Shown here: piece after piece, positions 5,372 to 47,217 of the stretch
Position numbering within the stretch: position 1 is the stretch's first letter
Layout of the letters: each line of letters starts with the position of its first letter
Sequence record: PZ721903.1
Reading direction: 5' to 3' (one strand)
DNA: 49,628 nt
DNA from: a phage
Made by a program: the position numbers and the translations under genes
The notes under the pieces: model-generated
What the model was told of the DNA's origin: nothing
Seen by the model: the letters and a program-made list of their open reading frames with translations, nothing else
Database searches by the model: none

Positions 5372-5848
5372 ATGGCACAAATTAATGCATCTTATCAGCG
5401 AGATATGGCGATTGCGCTTCCGGGTATGGTTGCGGATACTTCAAAGTACAATATTGACGGCGCTTGTGTCGTTAATGAAGGTGATGTTCTTGTTGGCGCT
5501 GCCGTACAAGTTGTTCAAGCTCAGGCGGTTGATGGTCATAAGTTGGTTAAGGCTCTTACTACCGGAACCACTCCTTACGGCGTGGCAATCCGATCTCACT
5601 GGCAGACTGTTAACGCTCAAAATCAGATGATTTACGAAGATGGCGGCGCTATCAACGTGATGACTTCAGGCCGAGTATGGATGCTTTCCAAATCCACCGA
5701 AGCACCAACTTTCGGCTCTGCCGTTAAACTTGATGTTGATGGTCAGGAAAAATCTGATGGCACGATCGAAACAACCTGGACCTACGCTGGCGGTTGGACT
5801 AAATACAAAGATATTCAGCTTGTTGAGGTTCAGTTGCATCAACTGTAA
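5372..5848 (+). CDS. capsid decoration-like protein, paralog A
   Basis: 158 aa; clearly paralogous to the next ORF (DTSKYNIDGACV...TPYG[VI]A[IF]RS...HGRVW); followed by a terminator. Confidence 0.45.
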   Translation: MAQINASYQRDMAIALPGMVADTSKYNIDGACVVNEGDVLVGAAVQVVQAQAVDGHKLVKALTTGTTPYGVAIRSHWQTVNAQNQMIYEDGGAINVMTSGRVWMLSKSTEAPTFGSAVKLDVDGQEKSDGTIETTWTYAGGWTKYKDIQLVEVQLHQL

Positions 5849-5863
5849 TTAGCGTTTAATATG

Positions 5864-5897
5864 GGGACTATCTTTTTTTTGGATAGTCCTTTTTTTA
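5864..5897 (+). terminator. intrinsic terminator/attenuator followed directly by RBS
   Basis: ggactatc / gatagtcc stem with T-rich loop, T7 run, then ATGGAGAAATCattATG. Confidence 0.6.
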
Positions 5898-5910: not shown

Positions 5911-6429
5911 ATGGCTTACGAAAATTTGTTCTTGCGCCCCGCGTGTCCGGGAAATATTTCTGATACTTCAACCTACAATATTGATGGAGCTTGTGTGGCT
6001 CAAGGTGACATTGGGTTCGGCTCAGCGGTTCAGGTTGTAGGCATCGTTGACGGTGTAAAAGTTGTGGCGGCGCTTCCTGATGGTGGAACTCCTTACGGTA
6101 TCGCTTTCCGTTCCCAATATGAACACCTGAGCGGTAAAATCCTTGACGGTGAAGTGTGCAACGTCGTTTCTCACGGTCGCGTATGGACTCTTACTTCTCT
6201 TGGTGAGGCTCCCAGCTTGTTCTCAAAGTTACAGTTTGGGTCTGGTGGAGTTGTTACTGGGGGATCTGGTTCCGCAGGTTGGACATTTGCGGGTGGCTTT
6301 GTTAAGCATGAAGATGGCTACATCATTGAGGTTCAGGTGAAACAAAATGCTTTCATCGCTCCACCGCCACCGCCCCCTGTCGTTCTTGTTGAATCTGCTA
6401 CAATCGCCACTGACAAGGAAAGCCCTTAA
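5911..6429 (+). CDS. capsid decoration-like protein, paralog B, with poly-Pro linker
   Basis: Paralog of 5372..5848 extended by PPPPPP linker and the first strand of a Big_2-like domain; ends at in-frame TAA 6427-6429. Confidence 0.45.
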   Translation: MAYENLFLRPACPGNISDTSTYNIDGACVAQGDIGFGSAVQVVGIVDGVKVVAALPDGGTPYGIAFRSQYEHLSGKILDGEVCNVVSHGRVWTLTSLGEAPSLFSKLQFGSGGVVTGGSGSAGWTFAGGFVKHEDGYIIEVQVKQNAFIAPPPPPPVVLVESATIATDKESP

Positions 6430-6678
6430 CCAAACAATGTTACGATCCAGTGTGTAGCTAATGCTCTTCCGGATAATGCAACCGATAAGACTGGTAAATG
6501 GTCAATCGACGCTACCAATATCGCCACTGTCGATCCGGACTCAGGTCTTGTAACTCCTGTTGGTGGAGAGGTAGTCGGTGATTTCAATATTACCTGGACG
6601 GCTAACGATGCCAGCAAGACGACGGCAACTATTGCTTATCGCGTAGAAGCAGTGCCAACGCCAGAGGTTGATGCATAA
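6430..6678 (+). other. in-frame extension encoding a Big_2-like Ig domain beyond TAA (possible readthrough product or pseudogenised C-terminus)
   Basis: Same frame as 5911..6429; 82 sense codons (PNNVTIQCVANALPDNATDKTGKWSIDATNIATVDPDSGLVTPVGG...TATIAYRVEAV) with no in-frame ATG/GTG/TTG until 8 codons from the end. Confidence 0.5.
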
Positions 6679-6698
6679 CATAAAAACACTTTGACGCT

Positions 6699-6715
6699 TT
6701 AACAAAAAGTGCTAT
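6699..6715. promoter_or_regulatory. palindromic box copy (late region)
   Basis: ttaacaaaaagtgctat; lies between a TTGACG hexamer and attatt, upstream of hairpin 6722. Confidence 0.6.
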
Positions 6716-6721
6716 TATTGA

Positions 6722-6750
6722 AGCCGTGAACATAATCACGGCTTTTTTAT
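6722..6750 (+). terminator. hairpin + T-run upstream of the capsid gene
   Basis: agccgtga-acataa-tcacggct followed by tttttatt; sits just downstream of box copy 6699 and a TTGACG hexamer. Confidence 0.5.
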
Positions 6751-6769: not shown

Positions 6770-7729
6770 ATGACTACTAAAAAATTTGATGAAGCAGATA
6801 AAAGCAATGTTGAAATGTATCTGATCCAGGCTGGCGTAAAACAGGATGCAGCCGCAACGATGGGTATCTGGACCGCTCAGGAACTACACCGCATCAAGAG
6901 TCAGTCCTATGAAGAAGACTACCCGGTCGGCTCCGCTCTACGAGTATTCCCGGTTACAACCGAACTCTCTCCGACCGACAAGACGTTTGAGTACATGACC
7001 TTTGATAAGGTTGGTACTGCTCAGATTATCGCTGACTATACCGATGACCTGCCTCTGGTTGATGCACTTGGTACTTCTGAATTTGGTAAGGTGTTCCGTT
7101 TGGGTAACGCGTATCTGATCTCAATCGACGAAATCAAAGCAGGTCAGGCAACTGGTCGCCCACTGTCAACCCGTAAGGCGAGCGCGTGCCAGTTGGCGCA
7201 TGATCAGCTTGTTAACCGCCTGGTGTTCAAAGGTTCCGCACCGCACAAGATTGTGTCCGTGTTTAACCATCCGAACATCACTAAAATTACCTCCGGTAAG
7301 TGGATTGATGCATCTACTATGAAGCCGGAAACTGCGGAAGCTGAGCTAACTCAAGCGATCGAAACCATCGAGACGATTACTCGGGGTCAGCACCGCGCAA
7401 CCAACATCCTGATCCCGCCTTCCATGCGTAAGGTTTTGGCGATTCGTATGCCTGAGACAACCATGTCTTATCTGGACTATTTTAAGTCTCAGAACTCCGG
7501 TATCGAAATCGACTCTATCGCAGAGCTTGAGGATATTGACGGCGCAGGCACCAAAGGCGTACTGGTGTACGAAAAGAATCCGATGAACATGTCCATCGAG
7601 ATCCCGGAAGCATTTAATATGCTGCCAGCACAACCGAAAGACTTGCACTTTAAAGTGCCTTGCACTTCTAAGTGTACTGGTCTTACAATTTATCGCCCGA
7701 TGACTATTGTCTTAATCACTGGCGTGTAA
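6770..7729 (+). CDS. major capsid protein (putative)
   Basis: 319 aa ORF with strong RBS ggag in the expected position after scaffold/decoration genes; high-expression context (own promoter/attenuator upstream). Identity from position and size. Confidence 0.6.
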   Translation: MTTKKFDEADKSNVEMYLIQAGVKQDAAATMGIWTAQELHRIKSQSYEEDYPVGSALRVFPVTTELSPTDKTFEYMTFDKVGTAQIIADYTDDLPLVDALGTSEFGKVFRLGNAYLISIDEIKAGQATGRPLSTRKASACQLAHDQLVNRLVFKGSAPHKIVSVFNHPNITKITSGKWIDASTMKPETAEAELTQAIETIETITRGQHRATNILIPPSMRKVLAIRMPETTMSYLDYFKSQNSGIEIDSIAELEDIDGAGTKGVLVYEKNPMNMSIEIPEAFNMLPAQPKDLHFKVPCTSKCTGLTIYRPMTIVLITGV

Positions 7730-10498: not shown

Positions 10499-10816
10499 AT
10501 GGCTAAATTCAATTTCGTGTTGGGCCAACTTCCAGACTTCAAACTTCCGGTGACATTCACCATGCCAAACGGCGAGGATGCGACTATTATTTTTACAGTA
10601 CGCCACCTTTCCAGTAAAGAAGTGCAAGATATGTATGCGAAGCAGGGCGAAATGAATGATAGCGATTTCATCACTAAGATCGCGTCAGGCTGGAATCTGG
10701 AAGAAGAATTTAACGAAGAGAATGCGCGTAAACTGGTACAGTATTATCCTTCCGCAGCGTACAACCTGACGGCAACTTACATCAAGGCGCTTGCCGGACA
10801 CCGCGCAAAAAACTAA
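10499..10816 (+). CDS. tail assembly chaperone (lambda G-like)
   Basis: 105 aa acidic protein directly upstream of the tape measure; ends with slippery heptamer A AAA AAC immediately before TAA. Confidence 0.7.
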   Translation: MAKFNFVLGQLPDFKLPVTFTMPNGEDATIIFTVRHLSSKEVQDMYAKQGEMNDSDFITKIASGWNLEEEFNEENARKLVQYYPSAAYNLTATYIKALAGHRAKN

Positions 10817-11133
10817 AAAGGGCGGTTTATCTGTTATATCAGAAACCGCCGACAGAAGAGCAATTACGATCGGTTGGCCTCAGTCTTTCTGACTATGAAG
10901 ACGAGGAACCGGAAACGATAATCGGCGATACTGAAATGGTGAAGGCGTGGAATGTTTTTACGTCAATGCTCACTCAGTGGAGAAGTTCAGGCGCTGGAGC
11001 TTATGGTCTTGACTATAATGTTTTGCCTATGTTGTTCAAAATCTATAAAATAGAAGATGAAGAACTGGCATTGCAGGACGTTAGAATCATGGAAGCGAAA
11101 GCGCTTGAAATGGTTGCTAAGCAAAACAACTAA
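10499..11133 (+). CDS. tail assembly chaperone G-T fusion via programmed -1 frameshift
   Basis: The -1 frame from the slippery site at 10807-10813 is open for 107 codons to TAA 11131-11133 ([17 protein letters not shown]...MVKAWNVF...AKQNN). Confidence 0.6.
10807..10813 (+). promoter_or_regulatory. -1 ribosomal frameshift slippery site A AAA AAC
   Basis: X XXY YYZ heptamer in the zero frame, 1 codon before the G stop; conserved G/GT arrangement of siphoviruses. Confidence 0.6.
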
Positions 11134-11156
11134 GCCGCCGTTTGGCGGTTTTTTCG
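11134..11156 (+). terminator. hairpin + T-run after the G-T ORF
   Basis: ccgccgtttggcgg followed by tttttt, immediately before the tape-measure RBS. Confidence 0.55.
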
Positions 11157-11171
11157 TATATAGGGGGTTAT

Positions 11172-14045
11172 ATGGTTGATAAGGTAGCAGGTCTGTCGCT
11201 TGACGTTGATGTGTCAACAGTGCAGCGCGCCGTCAAGTCACTGAAAGAGTTTTCAAAGGCCAACGACCAGGCCGCTGATTCTATGGGTTCTTTAATCAAT
11301 GAGTCAGAGGTTGCAAAACAGAAGGCCAAAGAACACGCTGAACAACTAAGGCGCCAGAGAAAAGAGTATGAGGCCGTGGAGAAGGCAATCGATCCTACAG
11401 TATCAAAAATGGAAAGGTTGAAGATTGCATCTCAGCAGCTTGATAAACTCTGGCAGCAGGGAGTCGTTCCAGATGAGACGTTTTTCCGTTTGGGTGAAAT
11501 GCTGGATCTGCAAAACGCAAAACTTGCTCGCAGCCGGGCTATGCTTACGGAAGAAGGTCAGGCGGCATTGCAGGAAGCGAAAGCAAAAGAGCAGGCGGCA
11601 GCACGAAGCAAGGCGTTCATGGATGCCCTGAATGGTCAAGTTAACGCGATCGGCAAGACTCATGCTGAATTGATGGAACTGAAAGCGGCTGAGCTTGGTT
11701 TATCGAAAGAAGCAGCACCACTAATCGCAAAACTTAAAGATCAAGGCCGGGCTATGAATGCAGCAGGTATTAGCGCCGGGGAATACAGGCAGGCAATGCG
11801 AATGCTTCCTGCACAGATTACCGACGTCGTTACATCTCTTGCATCCGGCATGCCAGTTTGGATGGTTGCCATCCAGCAAGGCGGTCAAATCAAGGACTCG
11901 TTCGGCGGGATCAGTAATACGTTTAAAGTGTTGCTGAGTTATATTAATCCAGTCACAGCAGGGGTTGGCGTTCTCGTTGGCTCGTTAGGTCTTCTGGCGA
12001 AAGCTGGTTATGACTCTTACAAGTCAATAACTGATATTCAGAATGCGCTTATTGAGACTGGCGGTTATGCAGGTGTTACGGCTGAAGAGCTTGATTCAGT
12101 GTCTAAAAAGATCGCACAGACAAGCAACTCAACCATTGGGAGTATTCGCGATATTGTAACGGAGTTGGCGAGTTCTGGTAAGTACACCCGCGAGCAGATC
12201 CAGAACATCACTAAGGCTACCGCAGAGTGGTCAGCGTCAACAGGAAAATCAGCAAGCCAAATTATTTCTGAGTTCGACAAAATCGCAAGCGATCCGGTAA
12301 AAGGCCTGAAGAAGTTAAACGAGCAATATAATTTCCTTGAAAAAGGGCAACTTACCTATATCGATACATTAAGCCGGACGAAAGGAGAAACTGAGGCAGT
12401 ATCAGAGGCTACCAAACTATTCGCAGACGTAATGGAAAAGCGAATGAAGTCGATCGCGGATAACGCTACTCCTCTGGAAAAGATGTGGAGCGATATTAAA
12501 CAATGGGCTTCGGACGCGTGGGGATGGGTTGGTGATCATACACTCGGGGCGCTAAACCTGATTGTCGACGTTGTTCAGGGTACAGTGATTCAGGTTAAAA
12601 TGATTCTTGCGAAGGGTGATGAGTACATCTCAAACTTTATCGCCTCAGCCATAAAGGCAACTCAGTCACTACCTGGAATGAGTGATTTCGGCGCTGATGT
12701 GCTGAAGGAGCAGGAGAACATCGTAAAAAGTTCTCGCGACAACTACGACCAGTTGGCTTCAGAGCTTGATGCTATTAACGCTCGCGTAGAAAAAGGCGAG
12801 ATGGGATACGTTGAAGCGATGAAGCAGCGTCGAACTCTTGAAAAGCAGTACAGTGAGGAAACTAGGGAGGCAATAAGGAAAGAAGCAGAAGAGATCGAGA
12901 AGCGAAACCGAGAAAGAAATAAGCAGTCGAAAATTGTACGCTCACCGACAGAGCAATTCGACAAGGAGTTAATTTCACTCAAGGCTCAACTTAAGGTATT
13001 GCAGGAGCATAAGGAGATCGGTCAAAAACTTTCCGCGCAGAGAAAGGCGCTGTTTACTACCGAGGCTACGATTGCTGTTCTTCGTGAAGCCAGCTCTAAG
13101 CGTCAGTTGTCTGCGGAAGAAAAAGCGTTGCTGGCAAGTCAGGAGAGAGTTATTGAGCTTGCGAAACAGAAGGCCGAGATTGGCGATCAGATTGTTAAGC
13201 AACAACAGTTGAATGATCTTACCGATAAATCTCTGAAGTTTGTCAATGAGATGACGGCAGCTACAGAACAGCTAAACGCGTCTCGAGGGATGAGCACCCG
13301 AGAAATGGAAAGGCAAGCTGAGTTGGCTAAGATCACTACTGATTATATTAATGCAGGTGGCAGCGAAGGAGATGAAAAACTCCAGAACATGATCAAGGCA
13401 CAAAATGATTACTATGCTGCGGAAGATGCCAAGCGTTCTGACTGGTTAGCAGGTGCTGAAAGTGCATTTGCAGATTACGGCGATTCTGCAATGGATATGT
13501 ACGGCAATGTGTATGATATCGCGTCAAGTTCACTTAACGGAATGAGTGACATGATGACCCAATTCCTGACTACAGGTAAGGCAAATTTTGAGGACTTTGC
13601 GAAAAACATCATTAGCATGATTATTAAGATGATTGCTCAAATGGTAATCTTCAATACGATCTCAGGCATGATGGGCGGTAAGACGTGGAGCTTTGCTGGA
13701 GGGGTGTCGCCTGGTGCTTCTGCGGTATCACAGGCAACTCCTACGCCTGCCGTCTCTGGTTTTAGGTCTTTATCTTCAGGCGTCGCTGTTACCTCGCTTG
13801 CTGCCGCTGCGGGTAGTGTTGCAACATCTGGATTTAACGCATCTAAATCCGCACCGAAGGCAGTGAACCAATCAGCAGGCGGGACGGTCGTTGATGTTAG
13901 GGGTATGGAGGTTAAAGTTGACAACGGTTCAGATCCGAGAGGAATTTCTCAGGGCGTAGAAATGATGTTCAAAAAAATGATTCGAGAGTCTTGTTCACAG
14001 GGCGGAGAGGTTTACAATTACATTCAGGAAAAAACAGGAGGCTAA
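11172..14045 (+). CDS. tail tape measure protein
   Basis: 957 aa, long alpha-helical/coiled-coil region, Gly/Ser-rich C-terminus; start at ATG 11172 behind RBS ggggg. Confidence 0.85.
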
Positions 14046-24152: not shown

Positions 24153-24180
24153 AAAAATCCCCGCAATGCGGGGATTTTAT
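24153..24180. terminator. bidirectional terminator between ssb (+) and tail fibre (-)
   Basis: aaaaatccccgcaatgcggggatttt: stem flanked by an A-run and a T-run. Confidence 0.65.
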
Positions 24181-25685
24181 CATTTGGACTTCAACATTTT
24201 TATCTCTTCTTGTAACTCTTCAACTTTCTTTATTGTATCCTGTAAAGCTCTCATAGTGTCAAGCAATAAAGGAGTTGTATCAAGCTCAAGCCTTTCAACT
24301 TTTGGCCCGTTTAGCTCGTGGCTCTCATACACCCTTCTCTTAACATATAGATTGTCGATCTCTTCTATCTCCTGAGCTATAACACCTCTCCTTACCCTTT
24401 CTTGCTCATCATCGTTAAATATAAAGTTCCTAAATCTCATTGATTTTATGTTGTTGTATGCAATGCTTGATTCATCATCCTTTATGCCGTGCTTTATATT
24501 TCTGTCAGATGCCGGAACCTGTTGGAAACTTCCAGCCCCTTGCGGTCCAGCGTAAGATATTTGCCCTGAAGCCATAAACCTGAAATGCATTTGCAGACCA
24601 ATATTGCCTGCTCCATCCCTATCTTGAGTGCCTACTGATATTTGTGCCCTGGGCCATTCAGGATTACCCGTAGTCATCATGCCAAATGCTACGCCGCCAA
24701 CGTATCCCTGACCTCTGGTGTCACACGATCCAGCAATAAGTGATTGATAGTTTTCAGCACCACTATCAGCGGTGTAAGCATTACCCTGGAAGCATGAAGC
24801 AGACCACATCTGGTTGTAACCCATAGATGTTTTCTGGCATAAAAACTGATTAGCTCTGAATCTATTGTTAGTCTCGAAGTAGTTTGCCCCCTCATAAAAT
24901 AATAAAGCCCCAGCATAACCATTATCGCTACGTTCTTTTCTGACGTAAATACCTGGCGTAGATATTCCATCAGGTGACATAATCATCAATGATGACAATA
25001 TGGACTGACTACCCCAGCTAGAACCGTCCCATGAATTCCTTCCTGCACCTATAGCGCCAGTGGTGTTAATAGCAAGAAAGTTAACAGCATCATTTTCACC
25101 TAACCCAATATTTTTTCTTGACTCTTTTTTATCCTCAAGACCAGCTAAATTGCCATCCTTAGTTAAAAGATTTTCAGCATTGATGCTGTTAGCTGCGTCT
25201 TTTGCTTCTTGAGCACTTACCGCAGCCGCATCTTTTGAGCTTACCGCATCGTCACGCGCTAATTCAGCCTGATTTTGCGCAGCTTGAGAATCAGATTTCG
25301 CCTGATTCACATCAGCAACTATTTGCTCAAGTTTATTCATATCAAGCTGATTTATCAGGTCTATAGCTGCCGCAATCTCAGTCTCTTTGCTTTGATAGTA
25401 TCGAAGAGTCTCGGCGACGTTTTGAGCTAATCCGTTAACGGTTAGAGAGTCATTAAGTAGGATCACATACTTACCGTCATCGGCAGTCTGACCATCAGTA
25501 GAGATAGCCTTTAATTCTGTATCACTAACGATATCGCTAATCACAGCTAGCTTAATTGGTTGCTCAAGGAACACGATAGTTGCACCTACGCGAATAAGAG
25601 CAAGCTGGTCTTTCCATTTTGTATCGGTTCCGTGAACCGTTCCGTCTGCATCCATTGATGCAGTACCGCGTCGATATAAAGCCAT
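24180..25685 (-). CDS. tail fibre with C-terminal intramolecular chaperone (peptidase S74-like)
   Basis: 501 aa; C-terminal region with SDRNIKHGIKD...RFRNFIF...coiled-coil tail typical of self-cleaving tail-fibre chaperone domains; RBS aaggag. Confidence 0.7.
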   Translation of the reverse strand: MALYRRGTASMDADGTVHGTDTKWKDQLALIRVGATIVFLEQPIKLAVISDIVSDTELKAISTDGQTADDGKYVILLNDSLTVNGLAQNVAETLRYYQSKETEIAAAIDLINQLDMNKLEQIVADVNQAKSDSQAAQNQAELARDDAVSSKDAAAVSAQEAKDAANSINAENLLTKDGNLAGLEDKKESRKNIGLGENDAVNFLAINTTGAIGAGRNSWDGSSWGSQSILSSLMIMSPDGISTPGIYVRKERSDNGYAGALLFYEGANYFETNNRFRANQFLCQKTSMGYNQMWSASCFQGNAYTADSGAENYQSLIAGSCDTRGQGYVGGVAFGMMTTGNPEWPRAQISVGTQDRDGAGNIGLQMHFRFMASGQISYAGPQGAGSFQQVPASDRNIKHGIKDDESSIAYNNIKSMRFRNFIFNDDEQERVRRGVIAQEIEEIDNLYVKRRVYESHELNGPKVERLELDTTPLLLDTMRALQDTIKKVEELQEEIKMLKSK

Positions 25686-31625: not shown

Positions 31626-32777
31626 ATGTCACAAGCTAAAATCACTACCGAACAACTTGTCGAAGAGCGCATGAACGGCCTAACACTTCGCGAGATCGCG
31701 GAAAAGTACGGTATGCACATTCGAACTGTTGAAGCTCGCCACGCAAAGTTGGCAAAAGAAGGTCACTTCCACGGTAACGAGCATGTTGCTAAGAACGTAC
31801 CGGAAGGATTCATGGTAAAAGGCACATCAACGATGATTCGCGGCGATGGGACCGAGGTGGTGCGCTGGGTTAAGACCGATCAGGACCGTGAGAAGATTGC
31901 AGCAATGATGGAAGCGGCGCGTATTGCATTCTGTGAAGATCTGCCGCGAGCAAAGCCAACTGAGCTACTAACCTCACAAGGGCTTACTACAGCGATGGGT
32001 AAGCTGGCACTCTATCCGGTATTCGATCTTCATATTGGCGCGCTTGCTCATAAGCATGAATGCGGAGAGAACTATTCTACCGATGTAGCGGAAAAAGTGC
32101 TGAGTGACTTCTTTAATTACGCGATCGATATTGCTCCGAACGCAGAGAAGGCTGTTCTGTTAATCGGCGGTGACTTCCTGCACTCTGACGGACTTGATGC
32201 AGTTACTCCGGCAAGCGGCCACGTTCTTGATCAGGATTCACGATATGCTAAATTGGTGCATGTAGCGATTCGATCGGTGCGACGAGCTATAGACAAAATG
32301 CTGACGAAACACAAAGAGGTCGAAGTTCAGGTTATCGAAGGAAACCACGACCAGGCCGGGATGATTTGGTTACGCGCAGCAATGGCAGCATACTATGAAG
32401 ACGAGCCGCGAGTATTCGTTGACGTCAGTCCTATGATTCTGCATAAGACTCGTTGGGGAAATACCTTGTTGGGATACACTCACGGGCACACTATGAAAAA
32501 GGCAGACACGCGACTTGCAGCGATGGCAGCAGATTTCCGATCGGATTTCGGCGAGAGCAAGTATGTGTATACTCATAGCGGGCACTGGCATCACCAGACA
32601 ATCACTGAGCACTCGCTAGGTATTGATGAAGTACACGGTCAGTTAGGCGCGAAAGATGCATACGCAGCACGCGGAGGGTGGCGCTCATATCGCCAGGCGG
32701 CGGTAATTGTTTACGATAAGCAGTTTGGTGAAATCGGTCGATTCATCTATCGTCCAGAAATGACAGGATCGCACTAA
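31626..32777 (+). CDS. calcineurin-like metallophosphoesterase with N-terminal HTH
   Basis: Metallophosphatase motifs DLHIG, GGDFLH, GNHD, HGH, GHWH; N-terminal LTLREIAEKYGM helix-turn-helix-like segment. Confidence 0.7.
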   Translation: MSQAKITTEQLVEERMNGLTLREIAEKYGMHIRTVEARHAKLAKEGHFHGNEHVAKNVPEGFMVKGTSTMIRGDGTEVVRWVKTDQDREKIAAMMEAARIAFCEDLPRAKPTELLTSQGLTTAMGKLALYPVFDLHIGALAHKHECGENYSTDVAEKVLSDFFNYAIDIAPNAEKAVLLIGGDFLHSDGLDAVTPASGHVLDQDSRYAKLVHVAIRSVRRAIDKMLTKHKEVEVQVIEGNHDQAGMIWLRAAMAAYYEDEPRVFVDVSPMILHKTRWGNTLLGYTHGHTMKKADTRLAAMAADFRSDFGESKYVYTHSGHWHHQTITEHSLGIDEVHGQLGAKDAYAARGGWRSYRQAAVIVYDKQFGEIGRFIYRPEMTGSH

Positions 32778-32788
32778 TTGATAAAAAC
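32770..32788 (+). promoter_or_regulatory. palindromic box copy (degenerate) + TATAGT
   Basis: cgcactaattgataaaaac, hairpin cccgaagggattcggg, tatagt, CATCGAAAACaaagaggat. Confidence 0.45.
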
Positions 32789-32840
32789 GCCCGAAGGGAT
32801 TCGGGTATAGTAACCACATCGAAAACAAAGAGGATATATC

Positions 32841-33017
32841 ATGAAGCGAGTTAAGTGCATCCGAAATGACTCCAAAACACTTCCATTCCGCGTAAATCAG
32901 ATCTATAGTGTTGGTTATGATTTCGGTGGGGGATTATTTGAGATTTACGACGGGCGAGGTTCAGCAATTCAGGCTCCTCTGAACGGTAGCTATCTGGAAT
33001 TTATTGCGATAGATTAA
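32841..33017 (+). CDS. small hypothetical protein (58 aa)
   Basis: Below the 60-aa track cutoff; preceded by a complete cassette and RBS aagagga; followed by terminator 33039-33071. Confidence 0.4.
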   Translation: MKRVKCIRNDSKTLPFRVNQIYSVGYDFGGGLFEIYDGRGSAIQAPLNGSYLEFIAID

Positions 33018-33038
33018 CAATATCATTCATCACCTTAC

Positions 33039-33071
33039 AGGCTGGCATGATTTACATGCTAGCCTTTTTGC
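33039..33071 (+). terminator. terminator upstream of the lysis cassette
   Basis: aggctggcatg...catgctagcct stem followed by ttttt. Confidence 0.6.
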
Positions 33072-33135
33072 GTTGTATCAAGTAAATTTGAAGGTTAAAA
33101 TCGACTCACTTGTTCAAAAAATATATGGTGAGATT

Positions 33136-33351
33136 ATGAAAGAATTTTTAACAGCAGCTACGTCAAGCACGGGCGGTGCTTCATTAGTCGGGGCCGCTAC
33201 CGGGCAACTTTATATTGCTGGCGCTACATTCATTTGCTTTCTGCTTTTTGGTGCCTGGGGTGCATACTGGAAGTATCGTGATAGTAAGGCAATTCAGGAA
33301 GCGTTAAACGATGGCGATCTAAATAAGGCGCTTAAGATCAGGGGGAGATAA
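33136..33351 (+). CDS. holin (possible pinholin)
   Basis: 71 aa with hydrophobic core [21 protein letters not shown] and charged C-terminus; directly upstream of the SAR endolysin with ATGA overlap; start ATG 33136 rather than the TTG at 33073. Confidence 0.6.
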
Positions 33352-33839
33352 TGAGCTTAAAAAATAACGTTATAGGCGCATCGATCGGGGCTGCTTTGAC
33401 GTTGACACCCACCCTACTGGAACGAATCGAAGGTATAGAATACGAGGTGTATTACGATATAGCCGGAGTCCCTACCGTATGCAGCGGAATAACCGGGCCG
33501 GACGTCATACCTGGTAAGAAATACACTAAGCGAGAATGCGATGCATTGCTGATAAAACATATCGGCGTCGCTCAGCGATACGTTGACAAAAAGGTGAATG
33601 TTGATATTCCGGTAACGATGCGCGCGTCACTGTACAGCTTCACTTTCAACGTTGGAACTGGCGCGTTCGGATCTTCTACAATGCTTAAGCTAATAAATCA
33701 GAGTAAGCACAAGGAAGCGTGCAATCAGTTATGGCGATGGGTATACTACTACAACCCAAAAACCAAAAAGCGAGAAGTGTCTAGAGGACTCAAGAACCGA
33801 CGCGCTGAAGAATACGCGTATTGCGTTAAGGAATTATGA
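33351..33839 (+). CDS. SAR endolysin (T4 lysozyme-like, GH24)
   Basis: N-terminal signal-anchor-release-like segment [17 protein letters not shown] followed by the E...D...T catalytic region ([26 protein letters not shown]). Confidence 0.8.
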
Positions 33840-34240
33840 TGAAACTGAAGAAAACGTGCATTGCGATTACAGTGGCTGTTGGTGTTATTTCTCTATCCGG
33901 TTGCTCTACGGCATCTGCCCTGAGCGGTTTAATCGGATCTAAACCGGAAGTTACAGCACAAATCGGAGAGGAGAACACAAAGCAATTAGCAGGAGTAACC
34001 GCAAAATCCGAAGATAAGCGAGATGTTAAAGTTGAGAAGTCCAATGTAGGAAAGATTGACTCTTCCTTGAAGAAGTCAATTGAAGTGTCAACCATTAAGG
34101 CTAACACGGTTAACGCTGAAAGCATCACAATAACAAAGCCAGAAAACTGGTACGATGCAATTGTAGGATGGACTCTCGTTTTCATTGGCCTATTGCTGGT
34201 TTATTTTTCAATTCGTAAGGACGAAAAAAAAGGAGGCTAA
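33836..34240 (+). CDS. unimolecular spanin (lipoprotein with C-terminal TMD)
   Basis: Lipobox ISLSGCS at the N-terminus and C-terminal [25 protein letters not shown], the architecture of T1 gp11-type u-spanins. Confidence 0.7.
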
Positions 34241-35070: not shown

Positions 35071-36639
35071 TTAACCCATCAGCCGAGGATTAATGAAAAC
35101 AATATCATCAATCCGGCAAGTGTAGTTCATCTCTTCGAGCGTGATAAGAAGACTATCGATTCGCTCAGATACTTTCTGTTGACCGTTGAAAGGCGTAACG
35201 TTCCGGCACTTTGCAACGATGCTATGAATAGGTGCGCGGCCTTTGTTTTTCTTCGCGATCTCAGTGATAACATCAATCAGCTTACGAGATTCAGCCTCAT
35301 CACCAGCATACCCGGCAGCGCTGGCAGACGACAGATAAGTCCTGGAAAGCTCATTGAAGATCATGATTGCTTCCTGCATTGTTTCAAGGTCAATCTCACG
35401 GTTGGAACGGTTCGGTGATTCACCCTCCCAATTCTTGATCGTGTGGAGAACTGAAGCAATACGCAAGGCGTGCTTATCGAACTTGCCGAGATGACCGCGT
35501 AGCATTGAGTGAGAGTATTTCCCACCTGCGGCGAAATCCGGTTCCATCGCCTGACGCGCAAGGTTTAATTCACGCATAGCATTACGGCTTACAGAGAGAA
35601 CAACGTTTTCCTCCTTCATGATGTTGTGAACGAGTCTGTAATATTTGCTAACCAGTCCTCGATCGACTTCTTTATACAATGCATCACCATTTTCATCACA
35701 AAGAATACGAGTACCTAAAAGCGGTTCCTCGCGAACTAACAGGAAGCGCTCAGATACACCGATACCTCGTTGGCCTGCGTCCATGATACCTTTGATTGTT
35801 TCATCCTGCGCAATTACGCAGATCGAGCCAACCGGGCAAAGAGACAAGTTGTTGTCCTGATTGGAGCGAGCGACCTCCATATGGTTTTTATCCCACGCCT
35901 TAAGAATAAGCTCACTGTTAGATTTCTTATCTGAACCTCCATACGTAAGACCGAGCAATGTATTGATTGCCGTTGCCTCATCAGAAATTACGGAAAAGTG
36001 GCCCTGAACAGCGGCTACTTTCGCAAGACCTTCAGGTGTAGGATCTGATACAGCAAAAACAATATCAGCCATCTTTTTGATCTTCTCTTCCAGTTTTTCT
36101 TTGTCCTCGTATAGTGCCGCAGTCGTGTTTCCTTTAGGATCATTCTTGATTTCCTTCTCAACCTGGCGTAGCTGACTGGTTAAACGAATACGTTCCTTTT
36201 TGCGCTCTTCATTCAGTCGCTGAATCTCCGCACGCATAGGTGTAATCGCCGCTGAGTTAATCGCGGACTTACCTGTTGATGGTGGCTGGCTGATTACCAT
36301 GTAAAGCGCGGTCGGCTGTTCCTCTCCGTGATATTGCACCCAAAACTTCCCGAGCATCGCGGCTGAGATGCAACCTATAAAATGAGCATACGCGGATGAA
36401 ACCGGGAACTGGACTGATTCAGCTTTTGCTTTTGCATATTCGAATACCAGGTTATCGCCACCTAACGAAATCAGAGGGAACTTATCGTTGCCGCTATTGA
36501 TATCGATCGGATCTTGCCAAAATGAAACTGAGTCACCATAGCTGTTTTCACGAATTGCGATCGCCACCGGATTAACTCCAGTGCTATTGGCGATCTCAAT
36601 AATCTGTTGGTAATTCAGTTTTGGCTTAATATTAAACAT
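35071..36639 (-). CDS. P-loop NTPase (putative replication-associated ATPase/helicase)
   Basis: Start at MFNIKPK behind RBS aaggag; Walker A-like SQPPSTGKS; 522 aa. Confidence 0.45.
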   Translation of the reverse strand: MFNIKPKLNYQQIIEIANSTGVNPVAIAIRENSYGDSVSFWQDPIDINSGNDKFPLISLGGDNLVFEYAKAKAESVQFPVSSAYAHFIGCISAAMLGKFWVQYHGEEQPTALYMVISQPPSTGKSAINSAAITPMRAEIQRLNEERKKERIRLTSQLRQVEKEIKNDPKGNTTAALYEDKEKLEEKIKKMADIVFAVSDPTPEGLAKVAAVQGHFSVISDEATAINTLLGLTYGGSDKKSNSELILKAWDKNHMEVARSNQDNNLSLCPVGSICVIAQDETIKGIMDAGQRGIGVSERFLLVREEPLLGTRILCDENGDALYKEVDRGLVSKYYRLVHNIMKEENVVLSVSRNAMRELNLARQAMEPDFAAGGKYSHSMLRGHLGKFDKHALRIASVLHTIKNWEGESPNRSNREIDLETMQEAIMIFNELSRTYLSSASAAGYAGDEAESRKLIDVITEIAKKNKGRAPIHSIVAKCRNVTPFNGQQKVSERIDSLLITLEEMNYTCRIDDIVFINPRLMG

Positions 36640-43261: not shown

Positions 43262-43750
43262 ATGAAAATCAAATTAATTTGCACTGGCGGTTACAAGGGA
43301 TTTACCCGAGATCTGGAAGCGGACCCTATCGTGGTTGATGCGGTGAAGTGTGATTCCAGTACTGGAGGCTACCGTGTTAAGGTTGACGATCTGGTAAAAG
43401 CTGGCGTGTACGATCTTGATTATGGGCTTTCGGTTAGCCCGGTATTTGGTCCGGCCGACTTCAACGAGAAAGACGGAACGATGTTCTTTTTTGAGTGGGA
43501 AGTGCAAGCGAACGTCAAGCCTCGTAAGGTTCGACTTCTCAACAATGGCGGCTACCCGATGAGACCAGGTTATGAGAATCGCACGTTCCCAGTTATTGTG
43601 GACTTCACCGAAATCACTAACAAACTGGTCTACGTCAGCAATGAGCATTTCCAGGCTGTAGGATTCACTGGCGGTATGCATAAAGAAGCGCTGTGCTTCG
43701 TTCGAGAAGAAATGCACGGTTACTATTCTGAGTGCGAGTTAGTTTACTAA
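43262..43750 (+). CDS. hypothetical protein
   Basis: 162 aa; cassette upstream. Confidence 0.5.
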   Translation: MKIKLICTGGYKGFTRDLEADPIVVDAVKCDSSTGGYRVKVDDLVKAGVYDLDYGLSVSPVFGPADFNEKDGTMFFFEWEVQANVKPRKVRLLNNGGYPMRPGYENRTFPVIVDFTEITNKLVYVSNEHFQAVGFTGGMHKEALCFVREEMHGYYSECELVY

Positions 43751-43767
43751 GAACGAATTGTTAAAAG
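43748..43767 (+). promoter_or_regulatory. palindromic box copy (degenerate) + TGgTATAAT
   Basis: aagaacgaattgttaaaagg; TGgTATAAT within gggga...tcccc. Confidence 0.5.
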
Positions 43768-43821
43768 GGGATTTGGCCTGACTGGTATAATCCCCGCATA
43801 AACCACTAAGAGGAAAGCATC

Positions 43822-44328
43822 ATGTTAAAATTAGAAGACGTAAAATTCCCGATTAAATTTATCAGCCTGGGTTGCGGTGAAATTACATTCACCAGTGAAG
43901 ATAAAGGCAAGTTGGCCACTGGTGAGGTGTCTCAGCTTAAGTTGGATTGGTTTATCAATCGGCACAATGAAGTAAATCCTGAAAACTCAGCCAAGAAGGA
44001 TTACCATTACATTATTAGTTGTAGTTATGATGCGTACGGAAAGTATGATGGTTGGAAAACTGATCGATCCATCTTCCACCCCTCAAAGCCAGAAGTCGAG
44101 CCATCGCTACAATGCACTCAGATCGAGAACATGCCATTGAGCGCTACGCTAAAGGGCGTCCAACTTGATAGCGAATCCTGGGCCGAGATTACAGCCACAC
44201 CTAAAACTATTGAGGTACATGATGATGTGGTGATTCTCCTGTTGCATTACGGCAGCTTTAAGCACAAAACGGTATCAGGTGAAATCAGCATTAAGCGCGG
44301 AACGCTTGTACGATATGAGGTGAAATAA
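43822..44328 (+). CDS. hypothetical protein
   Basis: 168 aa; cassette with TGgTATAAT upstream. Confidence 0.5.
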   Translation: MLKLEDVKFPIKFISLGCGEITFTSEDKGKLATGEVSQLKLDWFINRHNEVNPENSAKKDYHYIISCSYDAYGKYDGWKTDRSIFHPSKPEVEPSLQCTQIENMPLSATLKGVQLDSESWAEITATPKTIEVHDDVVILLLHYGSFKHKTVSGEISIKRGTLVRYEVK

Positions 44329-44477
44329 TGGCTGCGTGGGTCTTGATTATCTTGATGAGTACCGGTCCGGATCACGTATACATGGAAAGTCAGCAATCAT
44401 GCAACAAGGCTCGGGAGGTGATTTCAGAGAACAAGCCGTTCGGATACGAAGTAAAAACGATGTGCGTTAAACGATAG
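44328..44477 (+). CDS. small hypothetical protein (49 aa)
   Basis: Below track cutoff; TAATG overlap, RBS gaggtga; stop TAG in box copy 44474. Confidence 0.35.
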   Translation: MAAWVLIILMSTGPDHVYMESQQSCNKAREVISENKPFGYEVKTMCVKR

Positions 44478-44493
44478 CACGAATTGCTAAACC
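44474..44493 (+). promoter_or_regulatory. palindromic box + hairpin-embedded TATAGT
   Basis: atagcacgaattgctaaacc; TGaTATAGT within aaggcca...tggcctt; CCAATCAGAGGAAT. Confidence 0.65.
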
Positions 44494-44557
44494 TTCCGCA
44501 AGGCCATTTGATATAGTGGCCTTATTGAAGCAGAGCGACCAATCAGAGGAATCGGCT

Positions 44558-44689
44558 ATGAAAATCAGATTAACCAGTAGCTACTTTAACCGTGAATCTT
44601 TCAATCAGTACATAATCACAGACGGAATGAATACAGGCATCGTCCTTGATGTATCCCACAGGCGACGTTATGTTTGTATCAGCAACTGA
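44558..44689 (+). CDS. small ORF behind a complete cassette (possible 5' part of a frameshifted gene)
   Basis: ATG 44558 is the one positioned by the CCAATCAGAGGAAT RBS; 43 codons; overlaps the next ORF, which is in the +1 frame. Confidence 0.3.
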   Translation: MKIRLTSSYFNRESFNQYIITDGMNTGIVLDVSHRRRYVCISN

Positions 44690-44852
44690 GCTTGCAAAGT
44701 ACGCAAAGCCAGAACATCGCCACCTGGCAGAGCCGCACTTGAGCGATGGAAAGGTTACAGATTACGCATTCACCAAAGGTGAGTATGAAATCGTGAGATC
44801 TGGACCTTTCAGATTCTGGAACAAACTTAAATCAGGGGAGTTATTCAAATGA
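44649..44852 (+). CDS. hypothetical protein (start uncertain)
   Basis: Track ORF 44646..44852; no convincing RBS of its own. Confidence 0.35.
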   Translation: MYPTGDVMFVSATELAKYAKPEHRHLAEPHLSDGKVTDYAFTKGEYEIVRSGPFRFWNKLKSGELFK

Positions 44853-45136
44853 GCAAAACTCATAAGTTAAAAATCGCCCCTGTACATTTCATTGGTGTAA
44901 TGAACGGAACCAAAACGGCAGAGTTCCGCATCAATGACCGAAACTTCCAATCTGGCGATATCCTGGAGCTATGCGAGTTCGATCGAGATGAGTTTACCGG
45001 GTGGGAAGTTCACGCCAGGGTATCCGATGTTACCGATGTGACGCCATACATCAATCGCGGGTATGACGAGCAAGAATGCGACTTCACGCAATACGTGATG
45101 TTATCAATCAAGCCTTACAGGAAGGTTAGACCATGA
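44849..45136 (+). CDS. DUF3850/ASCH-like domain protein (putative)
   Basis: N-terminal KLKIAPVHF...KTAEFRINDRNFQSGDIL pattern resembles ASCH/DUF3850 proteins. Confidence 0.45.
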   Translation: MSKTHKLKIAPVHFIGVMNGTKTAEFRINDRNFQSGDILELCEFDRDEFTGWEVHARVSDVTDVTPYINRGYDEQECDFTQYVMLSIKPYRKVRP

Positions 45137-46205: not shown

Positions 46206-46736
46206 ATGGATAAAATTACCATTTGGGGCCAGACTGTCAACCTGTTTCTCGGCACGCGCCGAGTGGCAATCTTTGACTTTGACGGGACACTTAGCGATGG
46301 ATCTGGTCGACTTCACCTGCTGCCAACAAAGGATTTGCACTTGACTGAAAGCTGGTCTGAGTTTAACCGAGCGGCAATATTTGATAACCCAATCCAGAGC
46401 ACGATCGATGTGATGAACTCTATTTTTGCCGCTGGGTATCATGTGATCATTTTAACCGGGCGAAGTGATGAGGTGCGTTACGCATCTGAGTTATGGCTTA
46501 AGCATCACGGCGCTCGATATGATTACTTAGTCATGCGACCGCATACCGACAACCGCAAAGACACGGTAATGAAAGAAGAGGCAGTGCGCGCTATCGGCAT
46601 TGATAACATTCTTGCGGCTTGGGATGACTCAGTGAATATAATAAAAAAATTCAGAGATCTAGGGATAACCACATATCAGGTTTGTGAATATGCCTGTGAT
46701 AGTCGAGAGGATTTAAATAGTCATGGTGTCGATTGA
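46206..46736 (+). CDS. HAD-superfamily phosphatase
   Basis: Motif I AIFDFDGTL and ILTGR motif; 176 aa. Confidence 0.6.
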   Translation: MDKITIWGQTVNLFLGTRRVAIFDFDGTLSDGSGRLHLLPTKDLHLTESWSEFNRAAIFDNPIQSTIDVMNSIFAAGYHVIILTGRSDEVRYASELWLKHHGARYDYLVMRPHTDNRKDTVMKEEAVRAIGIDNILAAWDDSVNIIKKFRDLGITTYQVCEYACDSREDLNSHGVD

Positions 46737-47217
46737 TAACAAATCAATGGTAAGAGAGTTATTTACTTATTCTGACGGCGTTCTGTATTGGAAGGCCAAA
46801 TCATCTAAATACAGTAGAGCTAAAATAGGAGGCGCGGCAGGAAGCAAGGATAAAGACGGATACATAATAATCAGAGTAAGAAACGAAACTAGAGGCGCTC
46901 ACAGGCTTGTATGGATATACCATAATGGCAAGATACCTGATGGAATGGAGGTAGACCATATGGATGGAGACATAACAAACAATAGAATAGAAAACCTAAG
47001 ATTGGTAACGAGAACCATAAATAACAGGAATCAAAAAAAGAGATCTGATAACACAACCGGAGTATCCGGTGTAACTTTCATGAAAGATAGAGGAAAGTAT
47101 AGGGCGCAAGTTAGAAACAAGAGACTCGGGCAGTTCGACACAATAGAAGAGGCCGCCAAAGCAGTAAAGGATGAGCGGGATAGATTAGGTTTATTCACAA
47201 AAAGACACGGGGTGTAA
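46723..47217 (+). CDS. HNH homing endonuclease with AP2 DNA-binding domain
   Basis: HRLVWIYHNGKIP...DHMDGDITNNRIENLRLVTRTINNRN (HNH) followed by SGVSGVTFMKDRGKYRAQVRNKRLGQFDTIEEAAKA (AP2-like); AGA/AGG/ATA-rich codon usage unlike neighbours. Confidence 0.75.
   Translation: MVSIDNKSMVRELFTYSDGVLYWKAKSSKYSRAKIGGAAGSKDKDGYIIIRVRNETRGAHRLVWIYHNGKIPDGMEVDHMDGDITNNRIENLRLVTRTINNRNQKKRSDNTTGVSGVTFMKDRGKYRAQVRNKRLGQFDTIEEAAKAVKDERDRLGLFTKRHGV

Follow-up and report, generated by a model that had tools for sequence, protein, structure and literature searches.

A private in-frame TAA codon, probably a very recent nonsense mutation, in the gene for the Ig-bearing cement protein of a T1-like phage

The gene for the Ig-bearing cement protein of this T1-like phage carries an in-frame TAA at codon 173, and this codon is probably a very recent, lineage-private nonsense mutation (Gln173 to stop) in the orthologue of T1 gp48 and FCWL1 gp29. 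The interrupted gene is, by descent, an orthologue of the Tunavirus Ig-bearing cement protein, present here as a truncated allele. The window (the whole stretch of DNA that was analysed, 49,628 nucleotides) is a complete T1-like phage genome (Drexlerviridae, Tunavirinae, Tunavirus) beginning at the small terminase gene; among deposited genomes, those of Escherichia phage phiD2-2 (OR861627) and FCWL1 (PP558327) are closest to it. When compared with phiD2-2, it has 26 substitutions and no indels over window positions 1-32739 (32,739 nt, 99.92% identity), and when compared with FCWL1 it has 19 substitutions and no indels over the 24,179 nt of the terminase-to-tail block. The possibility that the window is phage JMPW1 was rejected, as the identity to this phage is only about 88-95.5% across the aligned blocks and indels are present.

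The interrupted ORF opens with the ATG at 5911 and extends on the plus strand to 6429, comprising 172 sense codons followed by the TAA at 6427-6429. Beyond this TAA the frame continues unchanged for 82 sense codons (6430-6675), starting with PNNVTIQ, up to a second TAA at 6676-6678. The features of the locus and of its surroundings are the following.

5372..5848, plus strand: 158-aa cement protein paralogue, orthologue of T1 gp49 and FCWL1 gp28 (PF22758, E 2.2e-30)
5863..5891, plus strand: terminator-like hairpin with a T-run, separating the two cement genes; the corresponding site of T1 (AY216660) has an annotated rho-independent terminator
5911..6429, plus strand: truncated 172-aa ORF, encoding the entire beta-tulip domain that binds the capsid, the poly-Pro linker and Ig strand A (from the ORF, the profile match, the T1 structure and the model)
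6261..6261, plus strand: second private substitution, GGT to GGG in Gly117, synonymous (from the comparison with relatives)
6361..6378, plus strand: linker between the cement and Ig parts, six proline codons, residues 151-156 (from the sequence; low-confidence segment 144-161 of the model)
6427..6429, plus strand: premature TAA, in which the T at 6427 replaces the C of CAA (Gln173) (from the comparison with JMPW1, SH2, FCWL1 and phiD2-2)
6430..6678, plus strand: orphaned remainder of the Big_2 domain, 82 codons and the ancestral TAA at 6676-6678, the same as in the intact close relatives
6691..6745, plus strand: promoter-like site TTGACG-16-TATTAT (6691-6718) and terminator-like hairpin (6720-6745) in the gap between the Ig-cement and major capsid genes; equivalents are annotated in T1
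6770..7729, plus strand: major capsid protein gene, orthologue of T1 gp47 (from the ORF list and the annotation of the relatives)

In a profile search, residues 8-143 of the 172-aa ORF match PF22758 (Phage_cement, 'structural cement protein E217 gp24/Pam3 gp6') with an E value of 1.1e-17 and 64.9 bits, above the curated cut-off of 27 bits. This match, and the presence of the same domain in the neighbour at 5372-5848, bear out the earlier note made from the sequence, which had described the product as a decoration or cement protein paralogue. The note had also read the frame after the TAA as 82 codons of an Ig-like domain, with the trivial omission of the first Pro, and this is confirmed by the match of the extension alone to PF02368 (Big_2; E 9.6e-9, 35.5 bits, gathering score 22.8 bits), which covers profile positions 18-78 of 79, the first approximately 17 positions being missing from the extension. 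As the note had further pointed out, the only in-frame ATG, GTG or TTG of the extension lies near its end, being the GTG at codon 75 of 82, eight codons from the end, and therefore the Ig part cannot be made on its own.

The position of the stop within the fold can be seen from the AlphaFold2 model of a 93%-identical 255-aa orthologue, which has the same numbering and a mean pLDDT of 85. In this model the cement domain extends to about residue 143 and is followed by a low-confidence, unstructured linker (residues 144-161, holding six prolines) and by a confident Ig domain (pLDDT 95-97 over residues 161-250). Strand A of the Ig domain is formed by residues 162-167 and the next long strand by residues 179-186, which places codon 173 between the first two Ig strands, in agreement with the earlier claim that the TAA sits inside the Ig domain. 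No single translation product of the window allele thus contains the complete Big_2 fold, strand A being encoded 5' of the stop and strands B onward 3' of it, and, with the TAA at codon 173, the cement and Big_2 parts do not form one uninterrupted ORF of about 255 aa.

The same locus is one 768-nt CDS, encoding 255 aa, in JMPW1, SH2, FCWL1, phiD2-2 and T1, and it is annotated in T1 and FCWL1 as 'IgG-domain-containing decoration protein'. With Gln173 restored, the window protein is identical to FCWL1 gp29 (PDB 9KMH, 'Decoration protein gp29') at 255 of 255 residues and aligns over 254 residues with T1 gp48 (PDB 9KZJ, chain H); the best Foldseek matches are likewise 9kzj_H and 9kmh_ak. The 158-aa paralogue is 100% identical to GP47 of phiD2-2 and corresponds to the 'cement protein II' of PDB entries 9KMG and 9KZJ. 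The fold, the copy number and the place in the capsid of the Ig-bearing cement protein are already published for T1 and FCWL1. In the T=7 head of T1, 80 homotrimers of the 158-aa gp49 and 60 heterotrimers (one gp48 and two gp49) occupy the threefold and quasi-threefold axes (PMC11945409). Residues 2-153 of T1 gp48 form the beta-tulip domain, which is bound to the capsid surface, whereas residues 154-255 are flexible, are seen only as weak protruding density and have been modelled by AlphaFold3; it is suggested by the authors that these residues aid adsorption (PMC11945409). The deposited PDB chains model only about 150 residues, which agrees with this weak density. The locus and the domain order (beta-tulip, proline linker, Big_2) are common to T1 gp48, FCWL1 gp29 and the window gene, but T1 gp48 and FCWL1 gp29 are intact, whereas the window allele stops at codon 173 and the Ig fold is missing except for strand A.

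The origin of the stop is apparent from the comparison with the relatives. When the window gene is compared base by base with those of JMPW1, SH2, FCWL1 and phiD2-2, exactly two differences are found, at 6261 and 6427, both private to the window. The change at 6427 is a C to T transition, converting CAA into TAA; in T1, codon 173 is CAG, so that all five of the close relatives compared as DNA have a sense codon at this position. Past the stop, a stretch of 249 nt (6430-6678) is identical in JMPW1, SH2, FCWL1 and phiD2-2, and since this region is undecayed and the same as in the intact genes, the nonsense event must be very recent; this base-for-base identity also means that the open frame beyond the stop did not arise by chance. 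The allele is thus one step away from the sense codon of the relatives, with an undecayed downstream frame, as is characteristic of a recent nonsense allele. More distant members of the Drexlerviridae (SRT8, tunzivis, swan01 and a Klebsiella phage, n=4) also have a single CDS, of 260-337 aa, and among 35 protein-cluster representatives, drawn from a collection of 5.8 billion proteins and standing for several hundred member sequences, the codon-173 column holds Gln in 31, Ser in three and Leu in one. The check proposed in the earlier note, a search for a sense codon in homologs, therefore gave such a codon (Gln, rarely Ser or Leu) in every relative examined, and two of the alternatives listed there, a very recent nonsense mutation or a sequencing error, fit a one-step CAA change that is private and followed by an undecayed frame.

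The TAA allele has been seen only once, in the window genome. With a 60-nt query that has the stop at its centre, matches were obtained in 41 deposited phages, at best with 59 of 60 positions identical (in 12 records), so that the stop allele is absent from the deposited phages searched with this query, and in every annotated record among the 41 the segment lies inside a single CDS. Exact scans with a 33-mer of the T allele gave zero matches in IMG/VR, in GTDB (one genome per species) and in the JGI metagenomes, and a codon-agnostic pattern also gave zero matches in metagenomes, which therefore give no picture of the alleles in the wild. In IMG/VR, a Y/R-degenerate pattern found only two contigs, and these carry the C, since the T-only scan of IMG/VR was empty. 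The complete E. coli genomes gave no match to the segment, and an exact look-up of the 172-aa product among 153 billion gene positions was empty. Two further candidates were rejected. An apparent second interruption in SRT8, where two proteins lie under one tblastn piece, is a single 783-nt CDS with a small antisense ORF. Deamination at a Dcm-site hot spot does not apply, as the mutated C sits in CCTCAACC and not in CCWGG.

It is also possible, although rather unlikely, that codon 173 of the phage is truly CAA and that the T was introduced by a wrong base call at 6427, through low coverage or because a minority variant of a mixed stock prevailed in the consensus. In favour of this, the T allele is unique among all the sequences searched and it breaks an otherwise conserved ORF. 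The second private change lies 166 nt away in the same gene, and two of the six isolated private substitutions in 32,739 nt fall in this 768-nt gene (P of about 0.008, calculated post hoc), which could reflect relaxed constraint, a locally poor region of the sequence or chance. Against an error, the window aligns with its closest genome over 32.7 kb without any indel, and most of its private substitutions, as judged against phiD2-2 and FCWL1, are synonymous and hence look like real divergence in a clean assembly. Only one of the 77 CDSs of phiD2-2, that of the Ig-cement protein, has a stop in the window, no other gene being broken. Substitution errors are uncommon in phage consensus assemblies. 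Moreover, real, independent disruptions of the Ig-cement gene occur elsewhere, one of which is reproduced in at least 10 separate run assemblies.

The window has further private differences elsewhere. In the large terminase there is a private change of Pro433 to Thr (position 1884) with respect to phiD2-2 and FCWL1, and this is the only isolated private amino-acid change besides Q173* in the 32.7-kb colinear block. At 10759-11530 (770 nt), 14 private substitutions with respect to the same two phages are clustered, most of them synonymous. This patch, which is likely to be a short recombination tract, extends over the tail assembly chaperone gene (PF08748, 10499-10816), the extension frame that follows it and the beginning of the tape measure gene. 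The TTG 'start' of the annotated gp57 of phiD2-2 is a TTA in the window, which suggests that the gp57 ORF is a frameshift extension of the chaperone and not an independent gene.

The open frame beyond the stop, which encodes a perfect remainder of a Big_2 domain, raises the question of functional recoding, in which the TAA is read through, either in a programmed manner or by an ochre suppressor of the host or the phage, such that a fraction of the 60 subunits shows the Ig domain. A precedent for such an arrangement is the A1 readthrough protein of Q-beta, where an in-frame stop is also followed by an open frame for a surface-display domain. In Q-beta this stop is a leaky UGA. Ig-like domains are reportedly added to phage virion proteins by frameshifting, as Fraser et al. 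are said to have described in 2006. In the window, frameshifting at a slippery site was rejected, since no X XXY YYZ heptamer is present at the site, the Ig part shares the frame of the ORF before the stop and both remaining frames are soon closed. In true cases of recoding, relatives share the stop or slip site, and the stop codon is generally a leaky one. Unlike in these cases, the window stop is a TAA that is private to one genome, with a sense codon in a single CDS in every relative examined, and programmed readthrough, for which a conserved stop is needed, is therefore unsupported. UAA is recognised by both release factors and is the least leaky stop codon in E. coli.

With regard to suppression, Gln is the residue that one class of ochre suppressor would restore, and Gln is ancestral at position 173. 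However, ARAGORN gives zero tRNA genes for the window and an in-frame TAA occurs in no other gene, so neither a phage suppressor nor a change of the code is indicated, and the window has neither of the marks of suppressor-dependent decoding (a phage suppressor tRNA or several in-frame stops). The stop context is a Pro codon, the TAA and a C, with flanks that are unchanged from those of the relatives without the stop. Having Pro as the last sense codon and C after the stop may slow termination. Nevertheless, the open downstream frame is fully explained by the recency of the change, and at 60 copies per capsid, basal readthrough at a level far under 1% would supply a virion with less than one Ig domain. 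Functional recoding is thus exceedingly unlikely, and neither of the mechanisms that the earlier note had put forward along these lines, readthrough of the TAA and suppressor-dependent display of the Ig domain, could be upheld. In E. coli, proline at the C-terminus has been connected with stalling and ssrA tagging, not with productive readthrough (Hayes et al. 2002, cited in PMC7246954). Stalling and tagging at the C-terminal proline could lower the level of the 172-aa product.

Assuming that the nonsense mutation is real, as is preferred here, translation would end at codon 172. The product would keep the whole beta-tulip capsid-binding domain (T1 residues 2-153), the proline linker and an orphan Ig strand A. 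All the contacts with the capsid and with the partner subunits that are seen in the T1 structure are retained in this part, and hence the 172-aa product should still be able to assemble with two copies of the 158-aa paralogue into each of the 60 heterotrimers at the quasi-threefold sites. The capsid would then be cemented normally, lacking only the 60 flexible, outward-facing Ig domains. The truncated product would essentially be a plain cement subunit of the beta-tulip type of lambda gpD and E217 gp24. Lambda gpD, TW1 gp56 and E217 gp24/Pam3 gp6 (PF22758) share fold and role with the N-terminal 150 residues of the window protein, but these proteins form homotrimers of one protein, whereas the Tunaviruses use two paralogues, one of which normally bears the Ig domain.

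An outward-facing, Ig-like capsid module is also present in T4 Hoc, T5 pb10 and N4 gp17. These proteins are monomers with unrelated capsid-binding domains, Hoc and pb10 being located at the hexon centres and N4 gp17 at quasi-threefold axes, whereas the Tunavirus Ig domain is fused to a beta-tulip cement subunit, which is part of a 1:2 heterotrimer at the quasi-threefold axes. Ig proteins of the Hoc, pb10 and gp17 type are described as devices for adhesion that contribute little to stability, and phages can do without hoc (PMC7602432). As modules of this type are accessory and Hoc is dispensable, loss of the Ig part is predicted to be tolerated, and, by analogy, the phage is probably fully viable in laboratory culture.

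Polar effects of the stop on the major capsid gene should be limited, because the interrupted gene lies between terminator-like hairpins and a separate promoter-like site (6691-6718, a match of 10 of 12 positions, with a TG) stands in front of the capsid gene. The gene order head protease, 158-aa paralogue, Ig-cement protein and major capsid protein is common to JMPW1, SH2, T1, FCWL1, SRT8, tunzivis, swan01 and K50. It was also observed that the Ig-cement gene is flanked by terminator-like hairpins and that the upstream paralogue is not separated in this way from the protease gene. Attenuated transcription of the second cement gene would fit the 60:360 stoichiometry of the two cement proteins that is reported for the T1 capsid.

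Other disruptions of this gene, and other arrangements of its Ig part, are found in the family. A T1-like lineage from runs SRR3470625-41 (Logan assemblies L012-L021), which is about 1.5% diverged from the window over 6.5 kb, has lost one A from the GGAAAGCCC run (AAA to AA). The lost base aligns to window positions 6419-6421, 5-7 nt upstream of the window stop, and the resulting product is 181 aa long and ends in ...DKEALNQTMLRSSV. This 181-aa product is found on 18 contigs, and the deletion is the same in 10 of the 10 that were read at the DNA level, which are separate run assemblies; a literature search found no paper on the study behind the SRR34706xx runs. In Shigella phage vB_SsoS_008 (P0031, 254 aa) there is a frameshift inside the Ig domain near residue 222, and in a 176-aa protein (P0033), encoded on a contig of 50,028 nt, the frameshift is in the N-terminal cement half, the ORF call starting in an alternative frame. 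There are also orthologues that have no Ig domain: two proteins of 165-167 aa (P0037 and P0038), which share 62% identity where their N-terminal region aligns, have a short acidic tail of Pro, Asp and Glu in place of the Ig domain, and Ig-less orthologues occupy the slot between the 158-aa paralogue and the capsid gene (L022 and L023, 2501-2998). Conversely, some orthologues of 336-339 aa have two Ig domains in tandem, as in swan01 (L010 1201-2214, 337 aa), P0019, P0020, P0025, P0030 and P0034. The number of Ig modules on the cement protein thus varies from zero to two across the Drexlerviridae, and the module is repeatedly gained, duplicated and lost. The independent disruptions, taken together with the natural Ig-less orthologues, suggest that the phages can do without the Ig domain in at least some conditions of propagation.

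From these observations it could also be thought that the truncation is real and positively selected, Ig-less capsids faring better on laboratory E. coli such that independent lineages lose the domain. This agrees with the position of the deletion in the SRR3470625-41 lineage so close to the window stop, with the further disrupted alleles of vB_SsoS_008 and P0033, with the natural Ig-less orthologues and with the isolation of many close relatives on laboratory strains such as JM109, JM110, DH5a, BL21 and MC1061. However, the intact gene is kept in the laboratory-strain isolates JMPW1, JMPW2, SH2, FCWL1, phi2013 and IME167, and two lesions that are a few nucleotides apart in a dispensable region of about 100 codons are only weakly surprising and were noticed post hoc. 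The data are accounted for equally well by the neutral loss of a domain that is not needed, and this is the simpler reading, since several laboratory-strain isolates keep the gene intact; adaptive loss is accordingly considered very unlikely. The broader proposal, in which a real truncation in the window would be one case of the recurrent loss of the Ig domain, possibly under selection, at the junction of the cement and Ig parts in T1-like phages circulating in laboratory and fermenter E. coli, is unlikely.

Elsewhere in the window, the region 46632-47216 is without a match in phiD2-2. A 164-aa ORF at 46723-47217 on the plus strand is homing-endonuclease-like (HNH_3, E 2.1e-22, and a weak AP2 match) and overlaps the 3' end of a PNKP-phosphatase-like gene (46206-46736), the product of which is 176 aa long here and 203 aa long in phiD2-2. 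This looks like a mobile endonuclease insertion that has remodelled the C-terminus of the kinase/phosphatase gene. In the FCWL1 record (PP558327), the segments 32476-33981 and 43367-44935 align in reversed orientation to window positions 24180-25685 and 35071-36639; all CDSs of FCWL1 are annotated on the plus strand, whereas the corresponding genes are on the minus strand in phiD2-2 and in the window. The reversed segments are possibly an assembly or annotation artefact in the FCWL1 record.

The finding matters little for biology at large, as the protein is already known and a private nonsense change is the commonest lesion of a gene. In annotations, the locus ought to be entered as a truncated or disrupted allele of an Ig-domain cement protein, rather than marked as a recoding site or split into two genes. 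Should the base be confirmed, this phage would be a natural Ig-less variant, 19 substitutions away from FCWL1 over the 24-kb terminase-to-tail block. Such an Ig-minus phage, if real, would be convenient for probing what the 60 Ig domains contribute to adsorption, aggregation and environmental persistence. The window allele is also one more data point for the recurrent loss of the Ig domain, and, if that reading holds true, the phage would be a ready-made Ig-minus mutant with which the role of Ig domains in siphophages, such as adhesion to hosts or surfaces and dispersal, may be addressed.
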